Shown: positions 1 through 61,713 of the stretch, piece after piece
Numbering within the stretch: the first letter of the stretch is position 1
How the letters are laid out: every line of letters begins with the position of its first letter
From: Euglena gracilis
Lineage: Eukaryota
Assembly: GCA_039621445.1 (NCBI GenBank)
Contig: CP154954.1
Span: 21,128,642-21,192,641 of the forward strand
DNA length: 64,000 bases
Direction: 5' to 3'
Notes under the pieces: model-generated
What the model was told of the DNA's origin: nothing
Seen by the model: the letters and a program-made list of their open reading frames with translations, nothing else
Database searches by the model: none
Made by a program: the position numbers and the translations under genes

Positions 1-234
1 CGTAGCTTGAGATCAAGATACACAAAAAGGCCTGGCGGGGAAATCAACCTATTCCCCAGAGGCACGTTTTTTTGGGCTTCCTGTCCAGTCTGATCTCTCA
101 TTGGATATGCGTGAGACCCAGAAGAACATCCCTCAGTCGCTCGCGTTTACCCATCCACCCAGTCCGGCCCTCTGCCACGCCACTGGTAGGGAAAACCTAC
201 CGTCCTCGCCCCCCTCCCCGGGAGGTGCCTGGGC

Positions 235-1583
235 CCAGGGCGGCGTAGTGGGCCTCGAGGTGCTGCCGCGACGTCGCCAGGCAAGGACAGTCATCCCCGG
301 TTTTTGGTCTCCGGTGGGGTCCAGTGGGATCCGGTGGGACCCGGTGGGATCCGGTGGGATCCGGTGGGATCCGGTGGGGTTCCGGTGGGTTGCCTTGGGG
401 GGGGGGGCGGGAAAAAAACACATGCAACAAGGTCAGGCTCTTGGTCTCTTTTTTTTGTCCCATATGAGTCACCTTTTGGTTCTGTTTAATGGGCCCAGCC
501 AGGTGCTCAGGATCTTTTGCCCCGTCGCCACATGGGATCACCACATGATGTGATGTACTCATTGCTCACCCTGGGGTCGTCGGTTTCATCCACCCCAATA
601 GCCACCAAATATTTGTCATCACGAATCATGTCCTGCAACTTTTTTTGACCAAAAAGAAAGGGTTGTACAAAAAAAGCAACCCATTCTTGTGCATCCCTCT
701 TTGGGGATGCTGCCGCACCGTGCACACCGCGTGGCACGGCATGACAGCAAGCAGGTACCTTTAATAACTGAATGAGAGAAAACCACCCGCAAAAGCGCCC
801 ATCGATTATCAAATTGCAATAAAAAGTCATTTTGAGCGAATTTCGTCAATTTTAGGTGTTTTTGGCACAAATCACCTGGTTTTGCCACCAGATCATACCC
901 AAAATGTCCCAATGTTCACCTAATCTGTGCAAATGGCCACAAAATGGCCAAAAGTGGCCAAAAAGTGGATAAAGGGGCAAAAAGTGGATAAAAGCAGTCA
1001 GAAGTGGCCGAAAATGGACACAAATGTGCAAAAATAGCCAGAAGCAGCCAAAAGTTGGTGTAAATAAAGCAAAAATGCATTCAAACAGCCAAAGGTGGTC
1101 TAAACTGCCAAATGCAGCCCAAAATGGCTAAAAGTGGACAAAAGTGGTCCAGAATGGCCAAAAAAAAATGGCCAAAAGGGCCAAAAGCTGCTGATTTGCA
1201 GTAAACCAGACAAAAAAAGAATGTAAGTCAACTACAGATGGGGTACTGGTGGAAATTTGTGAAAATTGCACATTCGGAAATGATTCTCCTCACGCGGGCC
1301 ATGAATCCAAGAAGAAAAATCTGTGCATGAAAAAAAATCTCCGGTGGGATCCGGTGGGATCCGGTGGGATCCGGTGGGATCCGGTGGGATCCGGTGGGAA
1401 CCCACTAGTCAAATGGTCAAAAAATCCCCGGTGGGATCCAGTGGGATCCGGTGGGATCCGGTGGGATCCGGTGGGATCCGGTGGCTGTCCTTGCCTGGAC
1501 GTCGCCTCCGGGCAGCCCGCGAAGAACAGCGTCCGCTGCGCCGCGGCGATGTCCCGCGACCGGCGCTGGCTCTCCTTCGCCAT
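235..1583 (-). CDS. 5' part of a putative RRM-type RNA-binding protein gene (exon 1 1501-1583, exon 2 ~235-272; probably continues past the window start)
   Basis: ATG at 1583. Removing intron 273-1500 gives MAKESQRRSRDIAAAQRTLFFAGCPEAT|SRQHLEAHYAAL. TLFFAGCP...L..HY..LG resembles RNP2 plus helix 1 of an RRM. GC-rich codons. Confidence 0.55.
278..1497. mobile_element. hAT-like non-autonomous transposon forming nonconventional intron 273-1500 of the RRM gene
   Basis: Perfect 13-bp TIR CAGGCAAGGACAG/CTGTCCTTGCCTG. Perfect 8-bp direct repeat GACGTCGC at 270-277 and 1498-1505. Subterminal (ccggtgggat)n arrays at ~311-389 and ~1341-1484. Confidence 0.9.
545..720 (-). pseudogene. Probable DDE/hAT-like transposase fragment inside the intron-forming element
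   Basis: Translation KKLQDMIRDDKYLVAIGVDETDDPRVSNEYI resembles the strand carrying the first catalytic Asp of hAT-like transposases (..I.vDETtD..). Judged by eye only. Confidence 0.5.
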
Positions 1584-2927
1584 GTGGGCAGGGCCGGGCC
1601 GCGGGCGGCGACCGGAAGGGAGGCGGGGCTGGGGAGGCCCACGACGCGGGGGTTGGGCGGGTGGATCCTGTTCGAACCCTTGTCCAATGGTGGTACTTTC
1701 ATGTTTGAAAAAAGTTTCATTTTTATTTTCATTTTCATTTTTTTTATTTTAATTTTCATTCTTTCATTTTCATGTTAAATTTTCATGTTTGTTTGAGGGA
1801 CGGGCACGGATCAATTCCATGCAAGCATCACAGGCCAAACAAAATCATGAAACTGAGGGATCTGCCGAAAAAAAATTCAGATCCGGTCCTTGACCTGCGA
1901 GAGGGAACCTATCACCCACAGCGGATACGTTGGCCCCATGTCCCTGCAGTTCCCACAGAGATTGATTTGCATCGTTAGTCCTGCCACCCTGAAAGCTTTT
2001 CCCACAACATTCATGTGTTGAGCAGCAAAAAATTGCAAATTATGTCGTCTCATCAATTTCAGTTTTAAGAAGTGATTCAAAAATGTAGAATAGTTGACCA
2101 AAGCGCATTTGTGCTCCCAAAGCCAGGGTGTTAAATAAGCGGTGGAGGGGGGTCTGGACCGTCCATCTCCCCCAGTGCATAAAAATGTCTGGCGCTTCAT
2201 GTCAAGAATAAAATTGGGCCTTGAAAAAGCCCAAAAATCGCGTTTTCACACGCTTGTTTGAAAAATCGGTCAAAACATACACCAGAAAATTAATATATAT
2301 TAAAAATTTTGGGTTCCCGGGGTGTCCCAGACCCCCTGAAGGGTCTGAAGGAGGAAGGGGGGGGGTCTGAACCGCCTCCCCCAGGGGTGGGATTGGTCAA
2401 CATCCCGGGAGATATGTCCCCTATTTACATCGCCCGGTGCACTGACTTGGGATGCATTTCGGCCATCATTCAGGAGTTTTAATCCCAGGTGACGAACTGG
2501 TCCTAAACGAACAAACTATTCATCAATATTGCAAGATTCTGCAAAGGCGTTGAAAAATCAAACGGAAAAATAACGTTTCATCAAGATAAGTGGGGCAGAC
2601 AAAGAAGAAGAGGAAGGTGGGGTAAATGGTTGTTTGAAATTTCCAAAAGAATGAAACAATATGAAACCTGTCCAACCATTGCCCAAGGTTCGCGTCCCAG
2701 GAGAATAGAATACTGGAATAAAATGTTGAACGCAATCTACTGATCTAAGACATCTGAACTTAGGTTGGCGAAACAAAACCATGGAGGGGAAGCAACATAC
2801 AGACAGGGCTGTTTCATACATTGAGAGCTTTGGGGTGGTTAGACCGAAGTGGACCGAGGGTAGGAGGGAGGTCGAGAAGAACAAAACAGGAGAAAGAATT
2901 TGCAGAACGGTGCAGCTCGGCTTTGAG

Positions 2928-9116
<6,189 letters not shown>

Positions 9117-11048
9117 CGTGCCAGGGCTGAATGGCCGTGTGGGACCCCCTCCTGCGAGTTGCCGGCTCAACCCCCCCCATTAGAAATTGTGTTTTCCGCC
9201 ATACTGATTTGGGGGGGTTACAAGCCACGGAGCGCAGGCCCATGGAACAACGTCTGGGATGTGTAACCCCCCCCAATTAACCCGGCGGGGTGCCAAGTTA
9301 TTGGAACCAACGCGCCGTACAGGAATTTTGCCTAAAAAGGGGGTGCCAAATTACTGGAACCATCATTTTTACCCCCCCCCCACCAAGTTATTCGGCCAAT
9401 GCCAGGGCAAGGGCCCCGCCAGGTTATTTGGGGGGGGGGTTAGGTCACACAAAGCTAACCTGGCCTGGCCTGCGAGGTGGGTTGAACAGCAGCCTTTCCT
9501 CCCGCCACCGACCCATCCTGAGCATTGTTTTCGACATGAAACGCTTTCTGCAAAGGTCCCTTGATGCTGTATTTTTTCAGGCTGCATATGACTCCTTCAG
9601 CTCTGAGTGTGTCAATGAGCAGCCTTTCTTTCAGGGAAGTCGAAAAGGAAAAAAAATGCGAGCTTTTTGTGGGACCCATTCTGGGTGGGGGGGGGGTTGG
9701 CCTCTCCCCACGGCAGGCAGTCCATTCCACACTGCTTGCTGCCTGCAGCAGGAGCTGCCTCTGTGAAGAAACGTTGATCCGTTGAACGAAATGGGACGGG
9801 GCATTGTATTTCTCCGCCTGAACTGGTGGGGGGAGGGATGCGTCGGGGACGAGAGAGCTGACCGCCCCCGGAGAAAAAATGCTGCTCTTGTGCAGCCAGC
9901 CGAGGGACGTGAAAGGGATCTCTGACGGGAGATTCCTTGAAGACTTCGGAGGAGGTGGGTCCAGCCCAGGGACTTATCACCCTTCCCCCCCCCCCAACGA
10001 CCGGTAACCTCTGTCCTCCGACCGGGGGGGGGGGGTCGTTCGACATAGAGGGGGGGGGAGTCTCTGCTGCACTCGCTGAGCTCCCTTTATGGGTGAGAGC
10101 GAAGCTAACCCCTGGGCAAAATGGGGGGGGGGTCGAACCCCCCCGGGAACCACCCTCAGGAACCGGCAGATTATTACCATGATCCCGGCTCCGTTCCTGG
10201 AACCCTTTCCCAGCTGCGAGCGAGGGGATTTCTAATTTCCAAATCACCTCCGTTTGACCCCCAACTCCGGCCAGGCCCGAGTTATTCAGAGAAAATTTCA
10301 AAGGAAATGTCCGGAGACCTAAATTGAAGCCCTTAAAATGCCCTATCGAACAGGATTTTGATTTCCCTGCAACTCCCGGACCAGGCCGAAATATGGCCAA
10401 TTTACGACCCAAAACAGCGCGAAACGCTTGCAACTTAGCCGTTGTTTGTGTCAAAAATTCAATTTTCCAAAATTTCTCAAAAATGGTGGGGAATCAAAGA
10501 AAATGTCCGGAGACCTAAATTGAAGCCCTTAAAATGCCCAATCTAACGGTATTTTGATTCGCCCGCAACTCCCCGCCTGCCTAAGTTACGGCCATTTTTC
10601 GGCTAATTTGGGCCATCTCGTGCAGTTTTGGCCAGTTTTGACTCAGCCTCTTTCGGCCATTTTTGGGTTAAAAAAAGTCGAAAAAAATCAAAAAAAAAAA
10701 ACAAAAAAATTGCCCAAAACCATGTTTTTTGGCTTCCTGGACCCGGAAAACCTTTTTTCAAGCCGAATCAGCGTTTTTTGAACCCCCGGCCCCCCATTTT
10801 TGGCCCCAAACCCATGCATTTTGGGTCATTTCCGGGTCAAAAAAGTTGAAGAAAATTTACACAACTGGCATAAATTTCAAAAATTATTGTAAATTACCAT
10901 AAATTACAGGTGTGTAATATATAAATCATAAATTACGCCAAATTCGCATTACTAGTCTTTTTGGCTGCCCATTGCATGCAAACCCCATTCAGAGCTCAGC
11001 ACTATTCAATACCTGGTAAGACACGGGGGATTGGGTGCCCCATGTTTG

Positions 11049-14715: not shown

Positions 14716-17700
14716 CCGGCCTCCCAGGCGGCCTTCACCGTACCGTACGAGCTGGTCAGGGAGGCCTCCACCGGCTCAATGTCCCACAGGGAGTACATCC
14801 GGTTCTCGAAGTACTCGTCGTCCGGGATGTTCTGGCTGATGCCTGGGTGGGCAAGGAGGCCGAGGCAAAGGGAGGGCAGAAGGAGGCGCGCCGGAGGAAC
14901 GCCAGAGCAGAGCAGCGTCAAAGGAACAATCATGCAAAATGCAACCCTCTCCAAACTGGAAAACCTCAAACAGTGCAACAACAACAACCGCACTATCGAG
15001 CTCATGTTGTGCTGGGATAAAGAAAAATCCCTTCGGTGACAGAATGTGCGAAGAAAAAAATTTCTGAAGTATTTCTTGGAGCTCTTGATGCGGGGCACAC
15101 CAGCGTAGAAGGCGATGAATTCCTCCTTCGTCACCAACCCGGAAGGGTTTGTGTCCCGAGTGAAATGGGAGTGGAAATTCTCCGCCGCCTCCTCGTGGCT
15201 CAGTTCCCCGGCCCGGACCAGGGGATGGTTGGAAGCGTTGGCGGCTGGACCGCTCCGCAACTCCAGCGGACTCCAGCGGACGGGCGTTGCACCCACAGTT
15301 ATACCAACAGAGCTGGAGGCAGTCCAGGCCGAAGCGATTGGTCACCTCGTCCAAGGCAACGTTTCCATCGCTGTCGTGACTGAAGCTGGCGCCAGGGCAG
15401 GATGAGACAGTCCCCACAGAAGGGTGGCAGCAGGGGGCTGCCAGTGGATGGTTCCCCACCAGGGGTTTTTAAAGACCGGGGGGGAGGGGGGGGGTCCCCC
15501 CCACCCACCCACCCCCTGGGGGGGCCCCCGGGGGGAGGGGGGGGGTCCCAGGGGACCCACAAAAAAAAATGGCCAAAAATCGCGAAAAGTGCTAAAAATA
15601 GCACTTTTTCGGCACCGAAAAGTGTATCCCACCCCCCTCCGGAGGGACCCCCCCTCCTGGGGGTCCATGACTAAAAAAAACCCCAATTCCCCACACCCAC
15701 CCTCTTTCGGGGAATTATAGAGGAAATCCAAAAAGGATACCCCTTGGAAAAAAAATAGAACTCCCCTTGAATTTTCAGCGGTCCCAAAAAGCAGACCGGG
15801 TTTATTTGGAGGGGTTTAGAGGTCACCGGGCTGTCAACAGGTGACGATGTGGTTGTGGGGAGCCTCATGCAGTCCCAAACGCCACCAGTGCGACTCTGCT
15901 CACGTACGTGCCGCGGAGAAGCCATCCGATAGAACCTTCCTGGGGCAGGGTACAAAAAAAACCGGTCCAAACAAGCAGGGTTTTCTGCACTGGGGGGAAA
16001 TTGTCTCAAAACCCCCAATTTTTGACACAATTTGGGCAGTTTCACAGTTGTGGGGTCTATTTGGATTTGAGGGGGGTATTTGGGTGGGGGGGGGGTCCAG
16101 TGTTTGGATTATTGAAATTGGCAGGGGCATTTTTGGGGGGGATTTTATTGGGGGGGGGGTGGCAGCAATATTCACGATACTGCTAGCCACTCCCTCCCTG
16201 TCCTCCCCTGGAGTGGCCCAAACCCGCTCCAGGGCAAACTTCCGGCGGGGCGGTAGTCCGATGGCGAAGCTGGCGAGGAACTCCGACAGGGAGATCAGCC
16301 CGTCGTCTGGGGGGGGGGGGGGGTTTAGGAAGGCCTGCTGGTTGGGAGGGGGGGGGGGTCGACCCCCCCACCCACCCCAGTGGAGGGTGGGTCACCCCCA
16401 TCCTGGTGGGAGGGGGGGGGGGTCCGACCCTCCATCCACCACTCTTCTTGTATTTTAATTGGCGCCTATTTTTAGCTCAAAAATATCCTTCGACGCCTTC
16501 AGTGCCACTGGGATTTTTTCCTTGCACAATGCTCACTCACCATCGGTAGGGTTTGGGGTTCCCACACAGCCTCTGGGGGATGGGGGAGCAGAGGGGAGGG
16601 CATTGCGAACAGAGTGGGTAGGCACCTTGCCGTCGCCCACCCCACTTTTTACAAGGCACACTCTGAACAGAAAACAGGAATCAGTCGACCCCGCCCCCCG
16701 CGAGTCGACCTCCCCGCCGAGGCACCAAAAGCAGATCACGCACGCTGTCAACGTGTTCTGTCTCTGTCAATACAAAAAGGTCCTGTGCATACCATTGCTC
16801 AGCGACCCCCGGCGGGGGGGAGGGGGAGGTCACTTTCCACTCTGAAAAAACCAGTCAGTCACTTTACCCCCCCCCGGAGGGATCGACCACTCTTGAATGC
16901 GCTCATGTTGGCAAGGCAATATTGCCAAAAAGACTCAAAAATCCAAAAAATTTCCTGCGCCTTCGGCGCCAGGCCAGCCACTTTTTCTTTTTCGGGCCTA
17001 CCCCACCCCCGGGGGGGGGGGGGGGCTCTTGGCCAGAAAACCAGTCAGTCACTCTGAAAAAAACAGTCAGTCACCCCCCCGGGGTGAGGTGGGACAGGTG
17101 TTAAGCAATGGTATGGTCCTGTGCCTGGCAAGGGGAGTCTGGTGGAGTGTGGATTGCTGGTGTGGACCAAGGCAGTTGCCTTTGTAGCAGTCTTTGCCCG
17201 GCAGTGGACAGGACAAACTTTCGCTGTCGAACGCAATGGCGAGGTGCCGCACTTCGTGGTCGGTGAGCTGCAGCTTGCAGGCCTGGGCCTTGGCGGCGAA
17301 CTGCGCGAACGTTCTGCGGGAAGCGACCCACGGGGATTTTGAAGGCCGCAGCAACGGACACAACATGACCGGGGTTGTTTTCTGGGACAGGAGGAGGTCA
17401 GCACCTCCCCATCCACCAACTCCTGGATGAAAATCTGCCCTTAAAGAAAAACTGACAGTGTTTCTTATTTTTTTCGCGGATTTTCTTTATTTTCGGCTCC
17501 ACTTGGAATACTTGGAACCCCCCATCCCCCGGAGGAGGTTAGGCCAATACCCACCCAACCACCCAACCTGACTCCCTGGGTCACCAACCGGCAGACAAAA
17601 CACTTTCTTCTGCCCCAGCAGCCGGCAATGTATGGCAACAACCTTTATAAACAGAAAAGAGAACGCGGATACATGATAGAGAATACAAGAAAGAGAACTA

Positions 17701-18469: not shown

Positions 18470-23017
<4,548 letters not shown>

Positions 23018-24090: not shown

Positions 24091-27000
24091 TCAGAGGAGC
24101 CTTTGACACAGGCGCCTGGCTGGGCAGCTGTCGCCACTCAGGCGGGGCTCCTCGCGCTTCTCCTTGGTGCGGAAGCCGGTGTAGCCGCTGGCGTGGCGCT
24201 TCCACATCCAGTCCTGGAGGGACTTGCTGTGGAATTGCTTGAGGTGTATGCTGTGTCGTTTCAGGGCAGGCCTGGTGGCAGCAGAGTGGGCTGGAACCTG
24301 TCATCATCGCGATGACCGCCCCGACCCCAATTCAGTTTGTGTGATTTATGCTATATATGCTATGAATATTATATATATTATGCAGATATTACATTGTTAT
24401 ATGTTATATGCATACATTGCATTGCTTATGCTATGTTGTGTGTGTGTGTGTGTGTGTGCTCATATGATCTGGTGGGCACCACAGCTCCACAAAAAAACAT
24501 GTGGCAATGCTCCAGCCGACCAAGCCGCTGGCCTTTGAGATGTGTGCAGTGCGCAGACCACACTCTGCAAGCCTGGTACCGAATTCTCGCCGCTGCCCTC
24601 CCGCTTCCTCCCGCGCCCCTCACCCCGGCACCAGCAGCGCACATCACATGTGTCGCTGTCGGCCCACAGCCCCCCCCCCTGGGCGATGTTGCAGCCCTCC
24701 ACACAGCCACACCGTCAGCTGGTGCGGGGACGGGAGAGAAGCCAGGAACTTCCCGTTGAGGCGGCCGAAGTGCGTCGCGTTGACCGAGTCGTGGACGCAG
24801 AGGGCGGCCCGGAGGTGGTACGACTCGATAGTCAGCGTGGTGGCGAGGAAAATCCGGCCGCTTTTCATGGCCCCGGCCAGGCCGGAGCCCCAACGCATGC
24901 GGCAACCTCTCTGGCCAACAGAGAGCTGTGAAGCATCAGGAGGCCATGTGAAGAATCTGCCCAGGATACGTATGCATCGACTCGATTGTTAACCTCGCTG
25001 TCACTGGCGGGGGTGACCCTCGTTGATTTCCATTGCTCTGGGCAAAAGATGTCGACTTTAAATGAACATAGCACAGCACCTCCATAATCGCTTTAAAACT
25101 TCTCAGGGGCATTAGGCGTTTGTACAACCAAAAGCAGTACAGATGCGCAGATGTGAGGAAGAGTGAGGGTCCAGGCTGGGCGGAGGACCCGAACATCACC
25201 CACGGCAGCGCCACTGCCCCGGTACCGTTGCGCTCGGCAGCCGCCACCAGGCTTGAGGTGGCCTCTGCTTGGAACGCCGTCCCATCATTGAAAGAATCCC
25301 CCCCACGGAAAAAATAACTTGACCTGACGTGTGTGCCCCCTGTGCCCCTGTGTGCAGGCACCTATGGTCACTTCCCATTTTGGTGCTCATGTTGACACAA
25401 ATTAGCCCAATATTTGCCAAATCAGTGACAAATAGCCCGCAAATTAGCAAAAACTGATCCATAATGGCCAAAATGGGTGTAAAACTGGATATTTGTGGGA
25501 AAATTATCCAAAAATGGGTTTAATTCTTCAAAATATACAAAAAAAATGTCAGCATCACCCAGCATCGCCCAGCAACGCCCTGCATCGCCCAGCATCGCCC
25601 TGCATCACACCACAGCATCCAGCCCGCACCCATCAGAGGTGCTTGGGTTCCGGAGGCTCTAAGCTGCCGATTCCCTTCATCCATTCCCTTTTCTGCCGGC
25701 CAACCACATGCAAGTCGGCTTTGGTCGCCCTGTGTCGGGGCCCTGGTCGGCCGTAGGTGCCCTGCCGGTGTTGGGCTTTGACTTGACATCAAATGTGTGC
25801 CCCACCCCCCTCCACAGAAGCGTTGCAGGCAACCGCCATCGCCAGTGCCAGTGCAACGCCGTCGAAGGAAGGCAAATTCCAATGAAACCATCATGAAGGT
25901 CCAACGGTCCTAACGTCCTACGCCAAAAGACCAGTGCCTCGCCCGGGGAGCCCAATACAAAATGCAACCTGGTCAACAGGCGGAATTCGACGAACCCCAG
26001 GAGTGGTGCCAGGCAGGCACTACCCCCCCCCTGGGGTCGGTGCCTGTTCGTGGGACAAAAAGTGCCAAAAATGGGCTTTTCCGGGCTTCCAGACCCAAAG
26101 GTGCCAGAAGTGCCTTGGCCGAGTGCCCACGCGCTTTTGACCATGTGCCCGACCAACCCACCCCCCCCCCCCGGGGGGTCGGATTTGGGTGCCTTGGAGT
26201 GCCTTCCAAAAATGCTAAAATTCAGCCTGGTCAATGTCAAATGCTGTTTTCACAAATAATTTTCACATAATTTTTATGGTTCTCTTTGTCAGAGAGCAAC
26301 ATTGTGAAACTTTGACAATTTTTTTTGCTCTCACTGCCTCGTGCCTTGCTGGAAACAGGTGGTTGCTTTTCGGTTTTACCTGTGAAGGGGGGGAGGGCAA
26401 AATTACTTGGACACATCTCGTTGACCGTTCCCCGTGCAAAGTCATTTGGGCACGCAAAGCTTAAGGCTTTAGGGCACTGGACACTTATTTGGGAGGGTGG
26501 TCTAAGAACACAAATGAGGTAATTATGAACAGAGCCCAGTTGGGAACGTGGGGTAGCGGGAGGAGTAGTAGAACTCGTCCGGATCCAGGTTGAGCAGCCA
26601 GTCCGCGAATCCCTTAAACCGGTTGAAGCAGAACCGCATGGCTGGGGGGCAGGGCGAGGCCTAAACCCCCCCCACTTATAAACCCCCCGGGGTTAGTAGG
26701 ATCCGGTTTGGTTGGTCGGCCGAAGGGGGGGGTTAGTAAGTGGGGGGGGGGGTTTATAAGTCCCGGAATTGTTGGTGAAAATCCGAACCCCAAAAATGAC
26801 CCCGAAACCCCCCCAAAATGGCAATTTTTGGTAAATTTGGTCAAAAATGGCATTTTTGATGATGGTCGATCTCAAAAAAAGGGCCAAAAATCAGTTTTTG
26901 GGTGGTTTGAGGCCAAAAAAATCGGCCCCGGCGGCTTTCAAGTGGGGGGGGGGGTTAGTAAGTGGGGGGGGGGTTAGGAAGTGGGGGGGGGGTTATATGG

Positions 27001-28507
27001 CCAGCCCAGGGGTCACATGGACAGAAGCTGCCCCGGACGAAAAGGAATCGACAACCATGTGAGTGGGCCACCTCAACCAGGGTGGGGCAAGAGTGGGAGC
27101 CCTGCTGAAAGGGGGGGGGGGTTGTAGGCTGGTGGGTCTGAAGGCCGGGAGGGGGGGTCCATGGGGAGGGGACGGACAGGGGGGGGGGGGCAACAAAAGA
27201 GCACTGGTGCAAGGGGTCCCTGGCACTCGCCACACAGCAAACTGGGCCAGGAGCGAAGTGAGCGCCGGCTATAAACAGACAAGGAGTCTGAGTGCAACTA
27301 AGGGGGTCCATCCCCCACCCACCGCCCGTGAGCTTTCCGTTCAACCCTGGTGGGGGGGTGACTGGCGGGGCCCTGGAGGCAAGAGTGGGTGCCCTGCTGA
27401 AGGTGGGGGGGCTTTGGGCCGGTAGGTCTGAAGGCTGGGGGGTCCACCCCCCCCACCCACCACCCATACGCTTTCCGTTCAACGCTGTTGGGGGGGAGGG
27501 GGGACTGGCGGGGCCCTGGGGGCGACCTGCTCCATCAGCTGCGGGGCGTCGTACACGACGGGGAACAGCGCGGTGGTCACGAGGCCGCGCGCGACGTACG
27601 GCCGCAGGATGCGCTCCGAGGCCTCCACCGACCGCCGCGAGACGTTGGGGGGAGGCCCGGGCTGGCCAGCAGGGACGGAGGTCGCAACGTTTCTCAAACT
27701 CCGGGGAGAAGCTTGTTTCCGAACAGGCGAAATCAGAGCTCGGAGCTGCTTGGTGTGGACCAGGGGTCTTTTTAAGACCGGGGGGGGGGAGGGGGGTAGA
27801 CACCCACCCACCCACCCCCTGGGGTGGGGGCCCCCGGGGGTGGGGGGGAGGTCCCGGGGGAGCAACCCACTTTTGCCCGAAAATGGCAAAAAAACGCTAA
27901 AAATAGCACCTTTTCAAAACTTTCGGCGCCTTCGGCGCTGAAAAAGATATACCCACCAGCCCCTACCTCCACCTCCCCCCAGGGGGTCCAAGGGACCCAC
28001 CCACCTGGGGCCTACCCCCCCGGGGGAGGGGGTCCAAAACTAAAAAAAAAAAACCCTGGTGTGGACACAAACACTCCGGTAATGGGGTTGATTCCACACA
28101 TGTGACCCCGCACAAACAAATGGATATTCAAAAGAAATGGAATGGTTGGAGCGTCGCAACACAGAATGGTTGGAGTGAGCAACACAGACACTTCCGGTTT
28201 GCCGGACAGGTAGAAGCGCCCCAGCGAAGCCAGCCAGGGCCTCGGGCGTGGAGGGTCGTCATGTGGACGAGGAAGAGGTGGTCGATGCCCAGCATCAGGT
28301 TGTACAGCACCCATTCCTGGAGGTAGGGGTCCTCCAGGTACAGCGCGGTGCAGACCGCCACCTTGCAGCGGGCGGCCCGGGTACAGTTTGAGTGGAGGCG
28401 GGGGCAGGACGAGGGGGGGTGGGTTCCATCGACACACCTCTTGTCTGGAATGCCGTCCCGTGCTGCGCGTGGATGTTTGATACCACGTTCTGTGGGTGTT
28501 GCTATGA

Positions 28508-28558
<51 letters not shown>

Positions 28559-31500
28559 CACACACACGCGCGCGCGCACACACACACACACACGCGCGCG
28601 CGCACACACACACACACATACACACACACTGATGTGGTTATTGTTATGCCATTGTGTACCCACGTTGCTTGTGCACGAAAGCCCCGAAGAAAGGCAGGCA
28701 CATAAGCAAGGAAAAGAATAGGCACGGTTTCAGCTGGTGATTTAGGCACTTGCGCTGCGGACGCTGTGGTTGTAACATGTGAGTGGCGGCTGCAGCAAAA
28801 AGTGACGTCTAACAGTCCACCTGCAGCAATGTGGTCGAGGGAAACTCCCTCTGCCTGTGCTGTGCACCGTGTTGGGGTCCACAGAGCCAAGGTGCCGCCG
28901 AAACTCCTCCACCGTGGTGAACCGCGTGGAGCGGACGGAAGCCGCGGCCAAGCACCCACAAACCACCCCGACATGCCCGCTGTGGAGGCTTGCCAGGGAC
29001 AGCGATGGCCGCGGCCTCACGGGGCTCTCGGCGGCCACTGAGTTTGTGCAGCCGTAACCCCCCCCCCCGGGGCCGGCCACCAAAGAGGATCCTGTGATCC
29101 CTCGGGGTCATAAGTTGGGGTTAGAGCAGTGTCTTGCCAAGTGGAGGGAAAGGAGAAGAGAGGAGGGAAAGCACGGGCAAAATGGAACCAGAATCTGCCA
29201 CCAAAGAAAGGAGGGAATCCAAAGATACATATCCACCGGCGATTGCTCAGATTTTATGCCCATCATGAGTTACAATATTGTGTATGTGATGTATTGAATG
29301 CTGTATACATTATGGCAGATTGAATGCACAAAATCAGCACCTGCAGTGGACTCATGCTGCATAGCATCTTCAATGTTCGGCGAAGCGTGGACTTGAGCGG
29401 CAGAGGGCTCCAACTCTGGATTGAGGAAACTGAACACGGCGATGGCAGGGATTCCTGGAATAACAATAAAAGGTCACTTACAGTAAAAAAAGGTTGAAAA
29501 TTTGAAGCACTGCCCTCATAAGTTCCAGGTTGCCCTGAGAATCGCCAACGAGTTCATTTGTGCTGGCACTCCGCAAAATGCGAAGGGTGGGAGCAGGACG
29601 CACCCACGCTGGGACAAGTGCAAAATCGATACACATAAAAAAATATCACAAAAGAAAAAGACATGAACTCATTGAATGTGTTAACTGCTTCCATGTGGCT
29701 CTCCTGTGCATTCAATCTGTACTAATAACGCTGACAGAACAAGTCATGATGTTCCCCCCACCAACCCACAACTGAACCAGATTCGAAACAAAAAAAAACA
29801 CAGTGCCTGTGATTATTAGCTGCTTAGGGACCTCTTTTTTGCCCCCCAAAGCTGCTGACCTCCAATCAAGGGTCCGTGGGGGGGTGCTTCTGAATCCGGA
29901 AGGGTGTTATTCAAGCAAATACAGCAGGATCCAAACAGTTTGCAAACCTGTCACAAGAAGCCCCGGTCGTCGGATGTTGCCCCTGCATAATTGCTGAGGA
30001 GATTCTTAGGGATGGCAGGTGAAAGGAATCACATGGTATTGCTTTTTGTCTCAGACGTTTGGTGACCCCCATCAAGCCAGATTTTAGCTTCTGCCTGTTG
30101 CCCTCTCAGGGGACCAAGGGGCACCCCACGGCAAGTGAAGTGTTTCAGAGATACCCACCCCCCCCCCCCGGGCAATTGTCGCGCGACAGATCGGGCAGCA
30201 CAGAGGGGGGTGACAATTTCCCGGGGTGAGAATTTGGCCAGCACAGAGGGGGGTGACAATTGCCCGGGGGCGTCAATTGCCCGGGGGGGGGGTACCTTTT
30301 TCCCTTGTCATTGTGGGCCAGACGGCATAAGACGTCGGAAATACTCACCCCGTCCGAGAGGACACCAAACCCTGGAGGCGGGGTGGGGGTGGTCCTGGGC
30401 CTCGCGCACCTGGCCGATGGCGAGGAGGAGGGCGCGGAGGACCAGCGCGGCGAAAACGACCGCGAGGGCGGCCAGCAGCCGGCCGCGCGGAGGCGCCGCC
30501 AGGGCGGCGGCACCGCGCGGCGGGGGCCCGGCGGTGGGGCTGGGGAGGGAGGCGCCGCGGCACGGGCGGCGGTGCACATGCCGGGGGTCGGCACGTCCCC
30601 GGTCGGCCGGGTTGCCCTCGAGGTGCCACCGGGCAAGTCGACACACGAGTCAGCACACGAGTCAGCGCACGAGTCAGCACACGAGTCAGCGCACGCCTTG
30701 GTAACACTTCCCTGGGAGTGAGCCCGGGCAGACTGCACCTCACTAAACCCCACCCCCCACTTATAAACCCCCCGCCTCGGGCCGACCAACAAAGCCGGCT
30801 CCTATAAACCCCCCCCTGGGGAAGAAAAATGCAAACCATCGGGGACGATTTTTCCAGCCCCAAACCACCAAAAAAAATGATTTTTGGGCAATTTTTTGAG
30901 ACCCACCATCATCAAAAATGCCATTTTTGACCAAATTTGCCGAAAATTGCCAATTTGGGGGGGGGTTCGGGGTCATTTTTGGGGGTCGGGTTTTCACCAA
31001 CAATTCCGGATCCTATAACCCCCCCCCCCACCTATAAACCAGGGGGGGGGAATAATTGATATCGGAGGCCTTCGGAAAAATTGCGGAAAAATTGCGGAAA
31101 AATTGCGGAAATTGCGGAAAAATTGCGGAAAAATTGATATTGGGTATACACATTTCTGCTTGGGGGGACTTAGAAAATTTTCAATTGTGAGGTTCAGAAC
31201 ACCGCAACACCCACGTCGATGCAAGCGAGCACAAATCAACACGCTTGATGTTCTTTGCACAGGTGGGACGTACCCATCCTGTGACTAGTGGTGCACCTGT
31301 GAGAAAAATTGGTAAACTGGGGGGGGGAACAACAAAACACAATAGCACACCTGTTGATCCATTTGAAGAATGGCTTGAACTCATTGCATCTTCCATCTTC
31401 GGTGGTGGAGAAAAAAATCTTCAAAAAAATGGTGAAAAATTGCGGAAAAATTGCGGAAATTGCGGAAAAATTGCGGAAAATTGCGGAAAATTGCGGAAAT

Positions 31501-31805
31501 TGCGGAAAATTGCGGAAATTGCGGAAAAATTGCGGATATCAATTATTCCCCCCCCCTGTATAAACCCCCCCCCTTCGGCCGACCAACCAAACCGGATCCA
31601 TTAAACCCCAGGGGGTTTATAAGTGGGGGGGGGGGTTTACAGCGCAGTCCACCGCTGGGTGGAAGTGGACATTGGTGGCAGCGTAAGAGTCGAAAAGGCA
31701 GCAGCGGTCCACAAGATTCCGTGTGTCGCGTTTCGCTGTCACACGTTGTAGGGAAGCGTCGAAGCGCGTGAACCAGCCATGCGACTGAAATGGAGCAGCC
31801 GGCAT
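24091..31805 (-). CDS. Glycosyltransferase family 92 / DUF23-like type II membrane protein (multi-exon; ends approximate)
   Basis: TM anchor [23 protein letters not shown] (~30415-30490). [31 protein letters not shown] (28265-28360). [12 protein letters not shown] (27575-27610). [27 protein letters not shown] (DxD motif; across intron 26644-27521). [12 protein letters not shown] (~25185-25220). [17 protein letters not shown] (~24195-24250). Confidence 0.75.
25977..26229. mobile_element. hAT-like MITE (CAGGCKGAATT family; related copies 43098-43373 and partial ~36400-36609)
   Basis: TIR caggcggaatt / aattcagcctg. GTCAA on both sides, possibly an 8-bp CTGGTCAA TSD that lost one ctg. Confidence 0.7.
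26664..26993. mobile_element. TA-flanked MITE (aaccccccccacttataaaccc family), Tc1/mariner-like
   Basis: C-rich/G-rich TIRs bounded by TA. Inverse-oriented homolog at 30746-31637. Confidence 0.7.
27761..28058. mobile_element. hAT-like MITE (CAGGGGTTTTT family)
   Basis: TIR caggggtcttttta / taaaaaaaaaaaaccctg. Perfect TSD GTGTGGAC. Confidence 0.9.
28510..28629. repeat. (CA)n microsatellite
   Basis: Directly visible. Confidence 0.95.
30746..31637. mobile_element. TA-flanked MITE carrying a nested hAT element
   Basis: ta-aaccccacccccacttataaacccc ... ggggtttataagtggggggggggtt-ta. Homologous to 26664-26993. Confidence 0.75.
31040..31558. mobile_element. Nested hAT-like element (CAGGGGGG family), 7-bp TSD
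   Basis: TIR cagggggggggaataattgatatc / gatatcaattattccccccccctg. TATAAAC on both sides. Confidence 0.88.
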
Positions 31806-31893: not shown

Positions 31894-34800
31894 TCACAAT
31901 TCCTCCTTCATCTTCTCAGGGTCCATCTTCCGGAGGTCCTCCGCCGTAAACATCTTGAAGCCCATCCCTGCACAGAAATCCATCAGGCATCAGGGGCAGA
32001 TGGTCCATGTCTGGTTGCAGGGGGAGGGGGTCACCTTCGCTTAACCCCCCTCTAAAATGAAACAACCCCCCAAATTTAAACAAAAACCTTTGGGCAAAAC
32101 ATACACCAAAAATCATCTTCCCCACAACAGAAAATGTTTTGGGTTTTCAGGGGAACCGAACCCCCCCCCCGGTCTAAAGGGGGGTCTGATCTCCCCCCCC
32201 CCCCGCAAAACCCAAAACCACTGCTCACTTAATATCCTGAGGTTAGGGCCAAATCCAGAATTAAGCAACCCCTGAAAAAAAATGAAATTCAGGAAAAATA
32301 AACAGAAATTTCCAATCCAACCAACTGTCAGCAACAAAACCACCCAAACTCACAATGATTGCTCATGTGTTTTGAAGGCAAGCACCAGCTCCTTCCGTAA
32401 CTGGAAAATTAGACATTTTTTGTTCATATCCAGTCCAACCCAAAAGTTTGAGAAACCTCTTAGCAGACAGTTGAAACCCAAATGCAAGCAGCAGGCTGCT
32501 TATATTCGGAATTAGACTCACTTCGAGGGAGGGAGGGAAAGGACGCGTACCAGTCTCCCGCTTCATCTTCGCCAGGAGGTCCTGCAGGTCTTTTTCCTTG
32601 AGCTTGTCCTTGGGCTTCGCCCCGTCCGCTTTTGCATTAGCGGACGCCTGTGGGGAGGTGAAGTAGTCAAGTCGGTCACCCTGGAGCCCTCCCCGAGGGG
32701 GACGGCAGACAAACAAACCACATAAAGTACTGTCCCACTGAACCCCGACTTTCAACTTTATTGGAGGGTTCACACAAAACAAGCCCATCCCCATCGTCGT
32801 AGGCAGCCTAAAAGCAACCCTCGGATTTGAGGTGTGACGTTCGGATGTGTTGTGGTCGTAGCATTGCACTGTGTTCGAATTGCAGTCCGACGTTGCACAC
32901 CTTGATTGGCAAGTCCTTGGACTCCCGCACCAGGCGAATCAGATCTGGCTTTTCTCCAGAGGCATACTGCTTCTCATCCACCCCTGGAAAAATGGGTGTA
33001 AAAAAAATAGATGTGAGGCGTGGCTTGCATTTGAATATGCTGCTGTTTTCCCTCCTTTGGTGCTTGCAAGCCAGAGAGGGAGGGATCATTCCAACAAGGA
33101 GAGGTGCAATGAGAAGGAGTAGAAGCACACATCATAAAATGGCTGACAAAATGAGATTTGGGTACGATTATGATAAACCACAAAAATTATCAGCAAACTT
33201 TCCACACAAACAGGCTTCTTCTTGAGACCCCCTGGCATGAGGCATAACCAGGAGGGGGTCGGTCCAGCCCATACCACACCTTACCGACCCCCGGGGGAGT
33301 GGGCCCACGAAAACCAGTCAGTAACTTTTTTAAAAGCCAATCACCCCCTGCTATCCCTGGGGGGGGGGGGGTCGGTCTGGCCAGTCGGCCAAAAATGGCT
33401 GAAAACCAATGGATTTTGATCAAAGCCCCTGAAAAATTATCCGGCTCCTTCAGCGACGGTGGCCACTTTCGGCCATCCTTGGTCGACCCACTGTGGGGGG
33501 GGGGGTCCGGAGCCAAAAACCAGTTAGTCACTCCGAAAAAACCAGTCAGCAGTCCCCCTGGTGAGTGGGTAGTGCCGTTTGGGAAGGCCTGGTGGGGGGT
33601 CAACCCCCCAACCACCACAGCACCCGTGCAAAGGAAAATCATTCGGTGCCGACGGAAAATCCTGACCGAAAAATCGGCACCCGGAAATGCGGGAATGCCT
33701 GGTTGTGCCTCATGCCAGGGGGTCTCAAGAAGAAGCCTGTTTGTGTAGAAAGTTTGCTGATAATTTTTGTGGTTTGTCATAATCGTACCCAAATCCAGGG
33801 GGGGGGGGATGCGCTGGACGGCCCTCGGAAAAAAATGCGCAAAAATGCGCAAAAAATGCGGTGAGTTTATGACATTCCTAAGGGAAAAAGGACTTAGAAA
33901 AATTTCCAACAAAAAACCCAAAATTAAACCAAAATCACCAAAAAAGAGCTGAAATGAAGGCATTTTGGCCAAGAAAAAGCATGACCTCACTCTCCGTTCA
34001 CCATAACCAACAATGTCAGCCATGGTGCCCCTTACTTGTGACCAGGGGAGTAGGATTCCCGCCTTGGTTACGTGTCAATGTGGGGTCTCTGAAACCCCTA
34101 GTATCCTCATCGTCATTGGATGAGTACCCACACCTCATCACCCAAGGGTTTTCTCTTGAGGCGGGTCCCTTGGGTGGGAAAAAAGTGCGAAAATGTGTTC
34201 GTTGGTTACAGAAATGGGTCAGTTGAATGTGGGCAAAATTCGGTGAGCATGTGATTTGGGTGGGAAAATGTGCAAAAATGGAAAAATGTGCAAAATTGGG
34301 TAAAAAATGTGCAAAAAAATGCACAAAAATGAAAAATGTGCAAAATTGGGCAAAAAAATGCGCAAAAAAAATGCGCAAAAAAATGGAAAATGTGCAAAAA
34401 TGGGGGGGGGATGTGCAAAAAATGCGCAAAAAAATGCGCATGAATGAAAAATTGACAAAAATGCGCAAAAATGCGGAAAAATGCGCAGCGCATTTCCCCC
34501 CCTGCCAAATCTCATTTTGTCATCCATTTTATGATGTGATAATTTTTGTGGTTTATCATAATCGTACCCAAATCTCATTTTGTCAGCCATTTTATGATGT
34601 GTGCTTCTACTCCTTCTCATTGCACCTCTCCTTGTTGGAATGATCCCTCCCTCTCTGGCTTGCAAACATAGTGGTAAGGAGGGGGGGTCGGACCCCCCCC
34701 CCCACCAGGACGGGGGTGCGGTCGGACCCCCTACCCACCACCCACAGGGTTTCAGGGATTCCCGCCCAGTCCTGAGGGTGGGGTCGGACACACCTTAAAC

Positions 34801-36352
34801 AGTGGCATGGCCCGACCTTGCCCCCACCCGGGAGGGGGGCAAGGTTCCATATAAGGACAGGTGGGACATCCCCCAGGGAAAGCGCCACCTAAACAGTGGC
34901 GCTGCCCAGGTGACCAATTTTCGCCTCCTGAAATTGGCTGAAAATGTATTATGGGGCAAATTTTTTGGGGGCAAAACTTTGTCGAAATGCAAAAAAAAAG
35001 CGCCAGAAGGAAAATTTTGACTGGGAGTTTTAACTGGGGGTTTAACTGGGAGAAGGGAATTTAACTGGGAGGTTCGGATATCCCCACCCACGAGGAAGGC
35101 GGGGGGGTCCAGATAACCCACCTATGGTCCAAGAGGAGGGTGGGGGTGTTCCCTCTGCCTCATGTGGGTAAATCGCCATCTGTTTTCTGTTTGCAAACGT
35201 TTGTTGTGGCATGGCTTCCTCTTTTGCCTCGCTCTTGATATTTACTAAAAACAGACCAATTTCTGGTTGATGACCAGGCTGCTTTTAATTGGCGGACCCC
35301 CCCAGGTTTGATATAAGAGGAGTACAGGGTAGAGAAGGGGGGGGTGTCCCCCAAGGGGCAAAAGGAGTGGGGGAGGGGGGGGCACCTCGCTCCTTCAGGA
35401 ACTGCCGCAGCTCCTTCGTCTTGTGCTTCCCCAGGTTGTCACCGCCAGGCCTCTTTTTGATAACACAGTCCTTATGCTTGTGCCTGCCCATGGCAGTCAC
35501 ACACCCCACACATGGACCCCGGCATATTTCCCCTGAAAATGCCCATTGGGTCCCCCAGTTGGTGCTGGGGAACCCCCTCCCCCCCACTTAAACCCCCCTC
35601 GGACCGACCAACCAAAAGGACACCTTATAAACTGCCCATCGTGAACAAAAATGAAAACGGTGTGGACATTCTTTTTGCCCTCAAAACTGCCCAGATCCGA
35701 TTTTTTTTTGGAAATTTCACTGACTTCGGACATCATCAAAAATGCAATTTTGGCCAATTTTGGTCAAAATACATTCCTTGGGGGGGGGGGGTATTTTGGT
35801 GGATTTCGACGAACAATTCCTTGACTCATAAAACCTCCCCATTATCAGCATTGTTATTTTTACTGACTTGTGAACCCCCCCCATTATAAAACCCTCTCAT
35901 CCGACCCGCCACACCAGACACAGGAGGGTTACAAATGGGAGGGTTCACCAGTTTACAGCATTACCCGGGGGGGGGGTCAGGGGGAGAGGTGCGGGTTCAA
36001 AATGTACACCACCCCCACCGCACAAAAATCCGAAAAGGCAATTTTCCCACAAATTTATGATCAGGGACCCGAAAATTTTTTTACCGTTTTATTCAAAGAT
36101 TAAAAAAAAAAAATGATGAGGAGACAGGTCAGCAGGTGCCAGAGCAGGAGAAAGGACAATTTAGCGAGCACAGATGGTCAAGGATATTTTCGCGGAGAGG
36201 TCAGAGGGTCGGAAGTACCCGGGGGGGGGGGGGCTTCTGCAAAGAAACGAAGCCTGGTCCCAGTCCAGCTCGACCCCCTGCACCACCGCCACCATCGCCA
36301 GCACCAACACCACGGCCAGCAGCCAGCGCCACCCACAGAGCTGCGGGGCCAT
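31894..36352 (-). CDS. ER-lumen protein with signal peptide, SAP/ARMET(MANF)-C-like domain and C-terminal KEEL (exons 36260-36352, 35386-35440, 32901-32983, 32551-32647, 31894-31967)
   Basis: Spliced: MAPQLCGWRWLLAVVLVLAMVAVVQGVELDWDNLGKHKTKELRQFLKERGVDEKQYASGEKPDLIRLVRESKDLPIKASANAKADGAKPKDKLKEKDLQDLLAKMKRETGMGFKMFTAEDLRKMDPEKMKEEL*. One nonconventional intron (35441-36259) and three GT-AG introns. Confidence 0.85.
33064..34665. repeat. ~190-bp inverted duplication (33064-33252 versus 33698-33795 + 34505-34665)
   Basis: Arms are near-identical reverse complements. The right arm is interrupted by a MITE and carries a ~60-bp tandem duplication. Confidence 0.85.
33796..34504. mobile_element. 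hAT-like element (CAGGGGGG family), 7-bp TSD confirmed by an empty site
   Basis: TIR caggggggggg.atgcgctg / cagcgcatttcccccctg. CCAAATC on both sides; a single copy occurs in the uninterrupted duplicate at ~34561-34580. Confidence 0.9.
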
Positions 36353-40130: not shown

Positions 40131-58211
<18,081 letters not shown>

Positions 58212-61323: not shown

Positions 61324-61713
61324 CAGGCATTTGCTTAAGGACCCCGGGGGGGGGGGGTACTGGCTAGCCAATCGGCTAGACACTGGAAAAAGTGGACTAG
61401 CTAGACCCCCCCCCCCCCGGGGGGGGGGGGGGGTCCGGGGGTCCCCCGGGCTGGAAAAAAAATTTTCTTCCATTTTGTTCCAAAAATTCCCAAAAATGGC
61501 CAAAAACGGGCATTTTTGGCCATTTTTGGGGGTCCCAAAAAAAATTTTCGGCGCTTCGCGCCGGTCACTGGAAAAAAATTTTCCACTAGCTAGCCCTGCT
61601 AGCAGCCCCCTCCCCCCGGGGGTCTGCTAGAAATCCCACTAGCCAAATTTGGACAAGCTGCAGTCCAGCCCCCCCCCCCCGGGGGGTACTGCAATCCCTT
61701 AAGCAAATGCCTG
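61324..61713. mobile_element. hAT-like MITE
   Basis: Perfect 17-bp TIR CAGGCATTTGCTTAAGG. Perfect TSD GTGTGGAC. Confidence 0.92.

Follow-up and report, generated by a model that had tools for sequence, protein, structure and literature searches.

Why the nonconventional introns of euglenids are cut three nucleotides before one end of their stem and five nucleotides after the other, and how such introns originate, are open questions. Both are raised by a locus near the start of the stretch of Euglena gracilis DNA analysed here, a window of 64,000 nucleotides (assembly GCA_039621445.1, contig CP154954.1, positions 21,128,642 to 21,192,641 of the forward strand; coordinates below are those of the window). 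At 278-1497 an element with inverted ends and flanking direct repeats interrupts a coding exon. An earlier note on this DNA had described it as exactly a hAT insertion acting as a nonconventional intron, and had equated the 3/5 offset of the euglenid splice rule with the length of the hAT target-site duplication (TSD). The explanation that best accounts for the whole of the data, and that we consider probable, is a young transposon copy in a coding exon, removed scarlessly from RNA by the nonconventional-splicing rule; as a whole, the earlier interpretation was partly supported.

Components of this picture are already in print. An origin of euglenid nonconventional introns from MITEs (miniature inverted-repeat transposable elements) was proposed by Milanowski et al. 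2014 (PMC3935182), who pointed out that no transposable elements were then known in euglenids. The pairing of positions +4..+6 with -8..-6 is given in Milanowski 2016 (PMC4770533), together with a strain-specific intron 4 of gapC in E. agilis ACOI 323, flanked by 8-nt direct repeats that were read as the trace of double-strand-break repair. A 2024 review (PMC11282704) mentions repeats that are 'TSD-like' and a pyrimidine|purine pattern shared by the two junctions. Nomura et al. 2025 (PMC12501133) defined the code experimentally as 5'-N3CDG-/-CH'GN5-6|R. Splicing is lost when the 5' spacer is altered by +1 or -1; a 3' spacer of +1 is tolerated, and at -1 splicing falls to about 20%. Some 12 nt of pairing behind CAG/CTG are needed, and E. 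gracilis splices wholly synthetic 50-bp introns of this design out of a foreign exon. The same paper excluded the 84.4% of introns with direct repeats at their junctions ('slidable' introns) before deriving the motif, and suggested that the splicing machinery may mitigate transposon insertions.

Results

Structure of the element and its host gene

The coordinates proposed by the earlier note were confirmed in the sequence: the element is 1220 bp long (278-1497), has perfect 13-bp terminal inverted repeats (TIRs; CAG...CTG) and a perfect 8-bp duplication, and interrupts an exon. An extra C shared by 278 and 1506 raises to 9 the letters that fit either side of the joint, so that 10 cut registers exist, all with one product. 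A GT/GC-AG boundary was found in 0 of these 10 registers, and the register with spacers of three and five nucleotides (N3/N5) ends GT...AC. The chance occurrence of such structures was estimated by a census of exact inverted ends of at least 9 nt that are flush with a direct repeat, after removal of low-complexity ends and repeats. When the window was block-shuffled 30 times, pairs with a 7-bp repeat averaged 0.03, and no pair had a longer one. The 6-bp 'duplications' of the census were rejected as palindromes merely prolonging the inverted repeat.

The G+C content was 75% in the flanks and 49% in the element. Pfam gave no match in either of the two open reading frames (ORFs) tested in 278-1497, and Rfam, at gathering thresholds, gave 0 matches. 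Within the window, blastn detected no other copy of the interior, and the 13-nt end, with as many as 2 mismatches allowed, had 5 matches against 2.2 expected, no excess beyond chance. The absence of coding capacity is that of a non-autonomous TIR DNA transposon (MITE-like), although at 1220 bp the element exceeds the usual MITE size limit of under ~1 kb (PMC3935182).

Four sequencing runs were mapped onto positions 1-6150, one of DNA (X1) and three of RNA type (X15, X21 and X24). The element splits codon ~28 of a trans-spliced gene on the minus strand, within its first coding exon; the start of the encoded peptide, judged by eye, looks like an RNA-recognition motif. The transcript 5' end lay at 1628/1629 in RNA reads and contigs, and a contig of X15 ended at 1629 with GAAAA plus adapter. 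This GAAAA would fit the 3' end of a spliced leader. At the other side, a loose end of RNA at 234 (9 reads in X21, 6 in X24 and a single X15 contig) points to a further splice. Left unspliced, the reading frame enters 278-1497 and stops after 97 codons. As the earlier note had held, a cut at 273-1500 takes out the element plus one TSD copy and restores the frame, ..CPEAT of exon 1 continuing in frame as SRQHLEAHYAAL.

Empty site and copy number

Run X1 has the character of genomic DNA: most unique bins, among them stretches devoid of RNA, were covered to a depth of ~131-297. It has none of four other RNA joints and is thus free of cDNA contamination. In the bins spanning the element (206-1640, flanks included) the depth was 37,670-359,388, and the family of 278-1497 comprises hundreds or more copies at 95% likeness or higher. 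Other copies with foreign flanks were recovered in X1 contigs, 10 at the left end (276/278) and 19 at the right end (1498), with a low consensus agreement among their loose ends (0.42-0.48). Since the copies diverge at these positions, the repeated unit stops where the inverted repeats stop.

An empty site was present in one 769-nt contig of X1, which runs from 2245 down to 1498 and then directly into 269-249, with a single copy of the duplication. Haplotypes or strains therefore differ in the presence of the insertion, and the comparison of filled and empty sites directly demonstrates the 8-bp duplication. With the empty DNA site, the high-copy family and the copies ending at the same two bases, the transposon insertion with an 8-bp target duplication at 278-1497 is proven, and the element belongs, as a young copy, to a non-autonomous, high-copy family of cut-and-paste TIR DNA transposons (MITE-like).

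Agreement with the nonconventional-intron code

Read on the minus strand, 273-1500 carries every element of the code: N3 GTC, CAG at +4..+6, a 13-bp stem, CTG at -8..-6, N5 GCGAC and an exon-start G, in the mRNA-sense layout ..GCGAC|GTC-CAGGCAAGGACAG...CTGTCCTTGCCTG-GCGAC|GTC... This register is one of the 10 indistinguishable ones and was chosen from the published code. The stem behind CAG/CTG is paired at 13/13 positions, against a need of ~12 nt, and it was present in both the minimum-free-energy and the centroid structures of a 1266-nt fold. The acceptor exon starts with a purine, G at 272 on the minus strand, whereas the plus strand would give C. Because the acceptor exon must start with a purine, the claim that such insertions are excised in either orientation narrows to those with a purine at position 6 of the sense-strand duplication, and does not extend to the plus strand here. 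The register of 3 nt before CAG and 5 nt after CTG on which the earlier note relied is that of the experimentally defined Euglena code (PMC12501133), and is unambiguous in two introns of the neighbouring gene described below.

RNA with the exact joined form across the 272/1501 junction, which the earlier note had proposed as a check, was observed as the joint 269->1498 in 6 reads of X21 (6 starts), 5 reads of X24 (5 starts) and one contig of X15. The same joint, however, is also present in the DNA of X1, so these reads are not creditable to splicing of the filled allele. From its agreement with the code, RNA of the filled allele is strongly predicted to be spliced as a nonconventional intron.

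The rule in the neighbouring EF-hand gene and a second exon-splitting element

A multi-EF-hand gene on the minus strand (18135-2931), with transcripts ending at ~2786, encodes a 561-aa protein, P0003, in 19 exons separated by 18 introns. P0003 was found by a search with one EF-hand exon, is labelled EG_transcript_6694 and is 100% identical to the exons of the window; from this label we presume that it derives from an E. gracilis transcript. At the exact protein-level junctions, 11 of the 18 introns had a GT/GC-AG register and 7 were nonconventional, and 4 junctions were also seen as RNA-only joints in the mapped runs. A purine starts the acceptor exon of all seven nonconventional introns. The register N3-CAG/CTG-N5|G is unambiguous in two of them, 4209..3379 and 9737..9117; the joint of the former, 3378->4210, was supported by 32 reads of X21, 1 read of X24 and 1 contig of X15, with 0 in the DNA run X1. 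The intron after residue 107 (16213..15387) has the end CAGGGGAGGACAG, close to the end of 278-1497, and a 6-nt 3' spacer. By its coordinates, an (ATG)n array at 6354-6661 falls in the intron after residue 377 (6776..6308).

One of the seven is itself a TIR element, 7846-9046. Its duplication, in mRNA sense GGTGCAGG / GGTGCGGG (9047-9054 and 7838-7845), agrees at 7/8 positions and lies in the 5+3 register. The single mismatch is at duplication position 6, where P0003 carries the base of the 3' copy. The product thus takes its positions 6-8 from that copy, and the donor cut must be 3 nt or more upstream of CAG. The intron 9049..7841 is absent from the transcript-derived P0003, which reads across it. 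The insertion of 8009-8975 inside 7846-9046 indicates that the latter is older. A common family of 3501-3785 and 7846-9046 was considered and rejected, as only their ends are alike and their interiors do not match.

Duplication lengths in the window

Twelve elements with CAG/CAT...CTG/ATG ends were tabulated in the window, microsatellite pairs at ~19.2-20.2 kb being set aside by eye. Flush 8-bp duplications were perfect in 6 of the 12 elements, matched at 7/8 in 2 and at 6/8 in 1, and flush 7-bp duplications were found in 3 (Table 1). Among the twelve, only 278-1497 and 7846-9046 were shown to split exons. With a 7-bp duplication, a 3+5 RNA cut would leave a scar. The elements with 7-bp duplications have flanks with a G+C of 0.43-0.54, unlike the GC-rich flanks of 278-1497, and one of them is nested in an intron.

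The same 8-bp duplication, GTGTGGAC, flanks 27761-28058 and 61324-61713, which are differing elements with differing outer flanks, and the duplications of 43098-43373 and 45382-46966 are GTGTG-rich (GTGTGTGC and GGTGTGGG); together these suggest a target preference. Subterminal arrays of a 10-bp unit were present at both ends of two unrelated elements, with the unit TCCGGTGGGA at 310-400 and 1340-1484 and the unit ATTCGTACTT at 8050-8099 and 8862-8952. In both elements the arrays have the same orientation at the two ends and are not inverted. As 10 bp corresponds to one helical turn, they may be protein-binding arrays.

Superfamily affiliation

Elements of the hAT superfamily typically have 8-bp duplications, short ends starting with CAG and subterminal repeats; their terminal consensus is YARNG and their duplication consensus nTnnnnAn. 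With Ac/Ds, hobo and Hermes, 278-1497 shares the 8-bp duplication, the short CAG ends and the short subterminal repeats, but it differs in the fifth end base, which is C and not G, in a duplication off nTnnnnAn and in arrays with the same orientation at both ends. YARNG fits 6 of the 12 tabulated elements.

The only ORF-bearing element is 45382-46966, of 1585 bp; its ends measure 19 bp (CATACTTGTAG...), its duplication 8 bp, and its subterminal motifs are hairpin-like (GCCGCGGTGGTCGCGGC). Its ORF (46168-46662, minus strand, 164 aa) had 33 homologues in an exhaustive search of a representative library. Pfam assigned 0 families to this ORF, and a word-index search for longer related proteins yielded 0 of 331 candidates. 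Among the 8 longer homologues scanned, of the 33, P0029 alone carried zf-C17orf113 at the matched part and 0 carried a hAT domain. A protein atlas gave zf-C17orf113 (0.92) and DUF4371 (0.90) for the ORF, both below recognition level and a weak lead. Merlin families with 8-bp duplications have been reported in E. gracilis (PMC8101967), with ends that begin 5'-GG; the ends of 278-1497 begin with CAG. A hAT-like affiliation of 278-1497 is a reasonable guess.

Features of the window

The features described are listed in Table 1. Apart from these, the window contains an NSUN2-like RNA methyltransferase gene (58211-37849, minus strand) of ~20 kb with at least 17 introns, the ortholog of which, P0002, has PF01189; by ortholog-guided inference, many of its introns are nonconventional. 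A 1590-bp unit lies between perfect 123-nt inverted repeats at 33070-34659, inverted arms ~4.9 kb apart with exact stretches of at least 28 nt are found at 26705-31593, and a long (GT/GC)n microsatellite occupies 19326-19878.

Table 1. Coordinates of the host exons, the element at 278-1497, the compared introns and the tabulated elements
Feature	Position	Strand	Remarks
Exon 2 of host gene	234-272	-	next intron begins 234/233 with (G)CC-CAG-GCACC; following exon beyond the window edge
Left copy of 8-bp TSD, GACGTCGC	270-277	.	
Predicted nonconventional intron, N3/N5 register	273-1500	-	mRNA sense GTC-CAG...CTG-GCGAC, then exon-start G
Left TIR, CAGGCAAGGACAG	278-290	+	13/13 complementary to 1485-1497
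Left subterminal 10-bp tandem array, (TCCGGTGGGA)n	310-400	+	7.9 copies
Internal array, 10-bp periodicity, AAAGTGGCCA-like	931-1195	+	
Right subterminal 10-bp array, unit TCCGGTGGGA	1340-1484	+	13.8 copies; orientation as in left array
Right TIR, exact reverse complement of CAGGCAAGGACAG	1485-1497	-	
Right copy of 8-bp TSD, GACGTCGC	1498-1505	.	
Exon 1 of host gene	1501-1628	-	5' UTR and first 27.7 codons, ATG 1583-1581; ends ..CPEAT
Reference intron, N3-CAG/CTG-N5|G	3379-4209	-	joint 3378->4210, 0 letters fitting both sides
Intron after residue 335, N3/N5 register	7841-9049	-	7 equivalent cuts; acceptor exon starts with G
TIR element, ends CAGGGCTGTACGG	7846-9046	.	stem 14/14; equals an EF-hand intron, with nested element 8009-8975
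Elements with perfect 8-bp duplication	278-1497, 16788-17115, 27761-28058, 43098-43373, 45382-46966, 61324-61713		
Elements with 7/8 duplication	3501-3785, 7846-9046		
Element with 6/8 duplication	34209-35265		
Elements with flush 7-bp duplication	8009-8975, 31040-31558, 33796-34504		CAGGG... ends; one with perfect 23-bp inverted repeat

Discussion

Proposed mechanism

According to the mechanism proposed here, the transposon would have inserted in the first coding exon and duplicated 8 bp of its target. In the pre-mRNA the two ends would pair as a stem, with the copies of the duplication remaining as identical single-stranded tails. The rule would then cut 3 nt before CAG and 5 nt after CTG, so that both cuts fall after position 5 of GCGAC|GTC. 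With both cuts at this position, the element plus exactly 8 nt would be removed and the pre-insertion sequence left. An exon insertion of the 278-1497 type would be neutralised at once and turned into an intron.

We infer that the introns were seeded by elements whose duplication length is mirrored in the 3+5 spacing of the code; that 3+5 = 8 in this sense is supported by the two exonic cases and the published code. A fuller version, to which we give an even chance, holds that the 3/5 spacing is the 8-bp TSD of CAG-ended founder transposons, that each copy is cut behind its base 5, at one and the same Y|R step, that insertions with a sense-strand purine at position 6 are erased scarlessly from the mRNA, and that the released RNA circle carries the element plus one rebuilt copy of the duplication.

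Alternative explanations

Several findings weigh against parts of this reading. The joined form stands as DNA in X1, where the joint 269->1498 in the 769-nt contig has a depth similar to that of unique DNA, and the RNA joints may come from an empty allele or strain. The RNA reads on the element mostly carry variants of other copies (12 of 14 X21 reads at 323, for example), and no read was assignable to the filled allele. The insertion could accordingly represent a null or hypomorphic allele, its RNA remaining unspliced or being degraded while the joined reads derive from the empty allele or from insertion-free strains. This we consider unlikely, since 278-1497 agrees with all five experimentally defined requirements of the code, E. 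gracilis splices code-built synthetic and foreign introns out of a non-native exon (PMC12501133), and the analogous 7846-9046 is absent from the transcript-derived P0003. The arithmetic of scarless removal faces findings of another kind. Three of the 12 tabulated elements, all with CAGGG ends, have flush 7-bp duplications; the other six nonconventional introns of the EF-hand gene show a flank identity of 4, 3, 5, 3, 4 and 1 of 8; and in the NSUN2-like gene, where 17 introns were placed with less certainty from an ortholog, the six with the best support show 3, 1, 2, 2, 3 and 4 of 8. Conventional introns in the same 5+3 register gave 0-5 of 8. Most of the nonconventional introns sampled are near chance. 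With little or no duplication signal in older nonconventional introns, the arithmetic is visible only in young insertions. The equality of 3+5 and 8 may then be a coincidence, the spacers being set by the geometry of the enzyme and elements with other duplication lengths also seeding introns; the code itself allows a 6-nt 3' spacer (PMC12501133), which is used by the intron 16213..15387. Such a coincidence appears doubtful, although it has more in its favour than a null allele. Both exon-splitting young elements have their duplication in the exact 5+3 register, 8 is the commonest duplication length among the CAG...CTG elements of the window (6 perfect and 2 at 7/8, against 3 of 7 bp), and GC-rich flanks like those of 278-1497 are missing from all three 7-bp elements, one of which is nested in an intron. 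The claim of the earlier note that the 3/5 offset is the TSD length is accordingly supported by 278-1497 and 7846-9046, but not by the elements with 7-bp duplications, nor by the older introns, which lack a clear signal.

On the superfamily of the transposon the case is more evenly poised. No transposase was found, and no transposase-bearing copy lies within the window; the CAGGC end has C at position 5 and misses YARNG, and the duplication does not fit nTnnnnAn. Two of the 8-bp elements start with CATAC, the ORF of 45382-46966 lacks a hAT domain and zf-C17orf113 was detected in one of its 8 scanned homologues. In addition, the Merlin families of E. gracilis have 8-bp duplications too (PMC8101967). 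It is a serious possibility that 278-1497 belongs to another superfamily with 8-bp duplications, whether P-like, Merlin, Mutator-like or an undescribed euglenozoan group. The GG ends of Merlin (PMC8101967) do not agree with the CAG ends found here. Short CAG ends, an 8-bp duplication and subterminal repeats are typical of hAT, and DUF4371 clusters, at an atlas score of 0.90, offer a weak lead in the same direction. Of the description 'exactly a hAT insertion', the transposon and its 8-bp TSD therefore stand, while hAT is unproven. The 8-nt repeat might instead have arisen without transposition, if a DNA fragment was captured while a staggered double-strand break was being repaired; this is the reading offered for the 8-nt repeat at the new gapC intron of E. 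agilis (PMC4770533). For 278-1497 it is highly improbable, given the perfect inverted ends, the hundreds or more copies ending at the same two bases within unrelated flanks, and the several unrelated elements of the window that also have flush 8-bp duplications.

Comparison with known systems

The predicted intron 273-1500 resembles the nonconventional introns of Nomura et al. 2025 in the absence of GT-AG, in CAG at +4..+6 and CTG at -8..-6, in a stem of at least 12 bp and in the acceptor purine. It differs in that its direct repeat is the full 8-bp duplication of a transposon and in that the intron is dated, polymorphic and multi-copy; in the text of that paper drawn on here (PMC12501133), the 3+5 spacers are not tied to a duplication length. 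Intron 4 of gapC in E. agilis is likewise a recent gain, absent from other strains and with 8-nt junction repeats, but the portions of PMC4770533 cited name no transposon family for it and give neither a copy number nor a register inside the repeat. The MITE-origin hypothesis has in common with the present proposal the inverted ends that make the stem, the TSD-like junction repeats and insertion as the source of introns; as worded in the parts of PMC3935182 and PMC11282704 cited, it is kept in general terms, without duplication length or superfamily. In the introners of Micromonas, dinoflagellates and others, inverted-end DNA transposons also turn into introns and the duplication aids their exact removal (PMC11282704), but this removal is spliceosomal and uses GT/GC-AG from the element or the duplication (PMC11282704). 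By contrast, 273-1500 has no GT-AG register and conforms to a stem-measured, non-GT-AG rule.

A full-text literature search, to which figures and supplements were outside reach, returned no paper equating N3+N5 with the duplication length or naming hAT for euglenid nonconventional introns, and one for a transposable-element annotation of E. gracilis yielded nothing of use. The earlier note had left the novelty of the arithmetic to a literature check: the parts, namely the MITE origin, the TSD-like repeats, the 3/5 spacers and a newly gained intron with an 8-nt repeat, are already published, while the statement that 3+5 equals the duplication length was not found in print.

Significance for Euglena

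The window offers a probable intron gain caught in the act, with a polymorphic insertion in an exon, a high-copy family and a duplication and ends that match the code, and an older second case in the neighbouring gene; it bears in this way on the origin of euglenid nonconventional introns and on the reason for their 3/5 boundary rule. If the proposed reading is true, it would explain why most introns of Euglena are 'slidable', why a pyrimidine|purine pattern is common to both junctions and how the genome tolerates intron gain on a large scale. If the arithmetic is general, the splicing code would be linked to a property of the transposase, the stagger of its target cut, and sharp genome-wide predictions would follow that are testable in existing data of E. 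gracilis and E. agilis.

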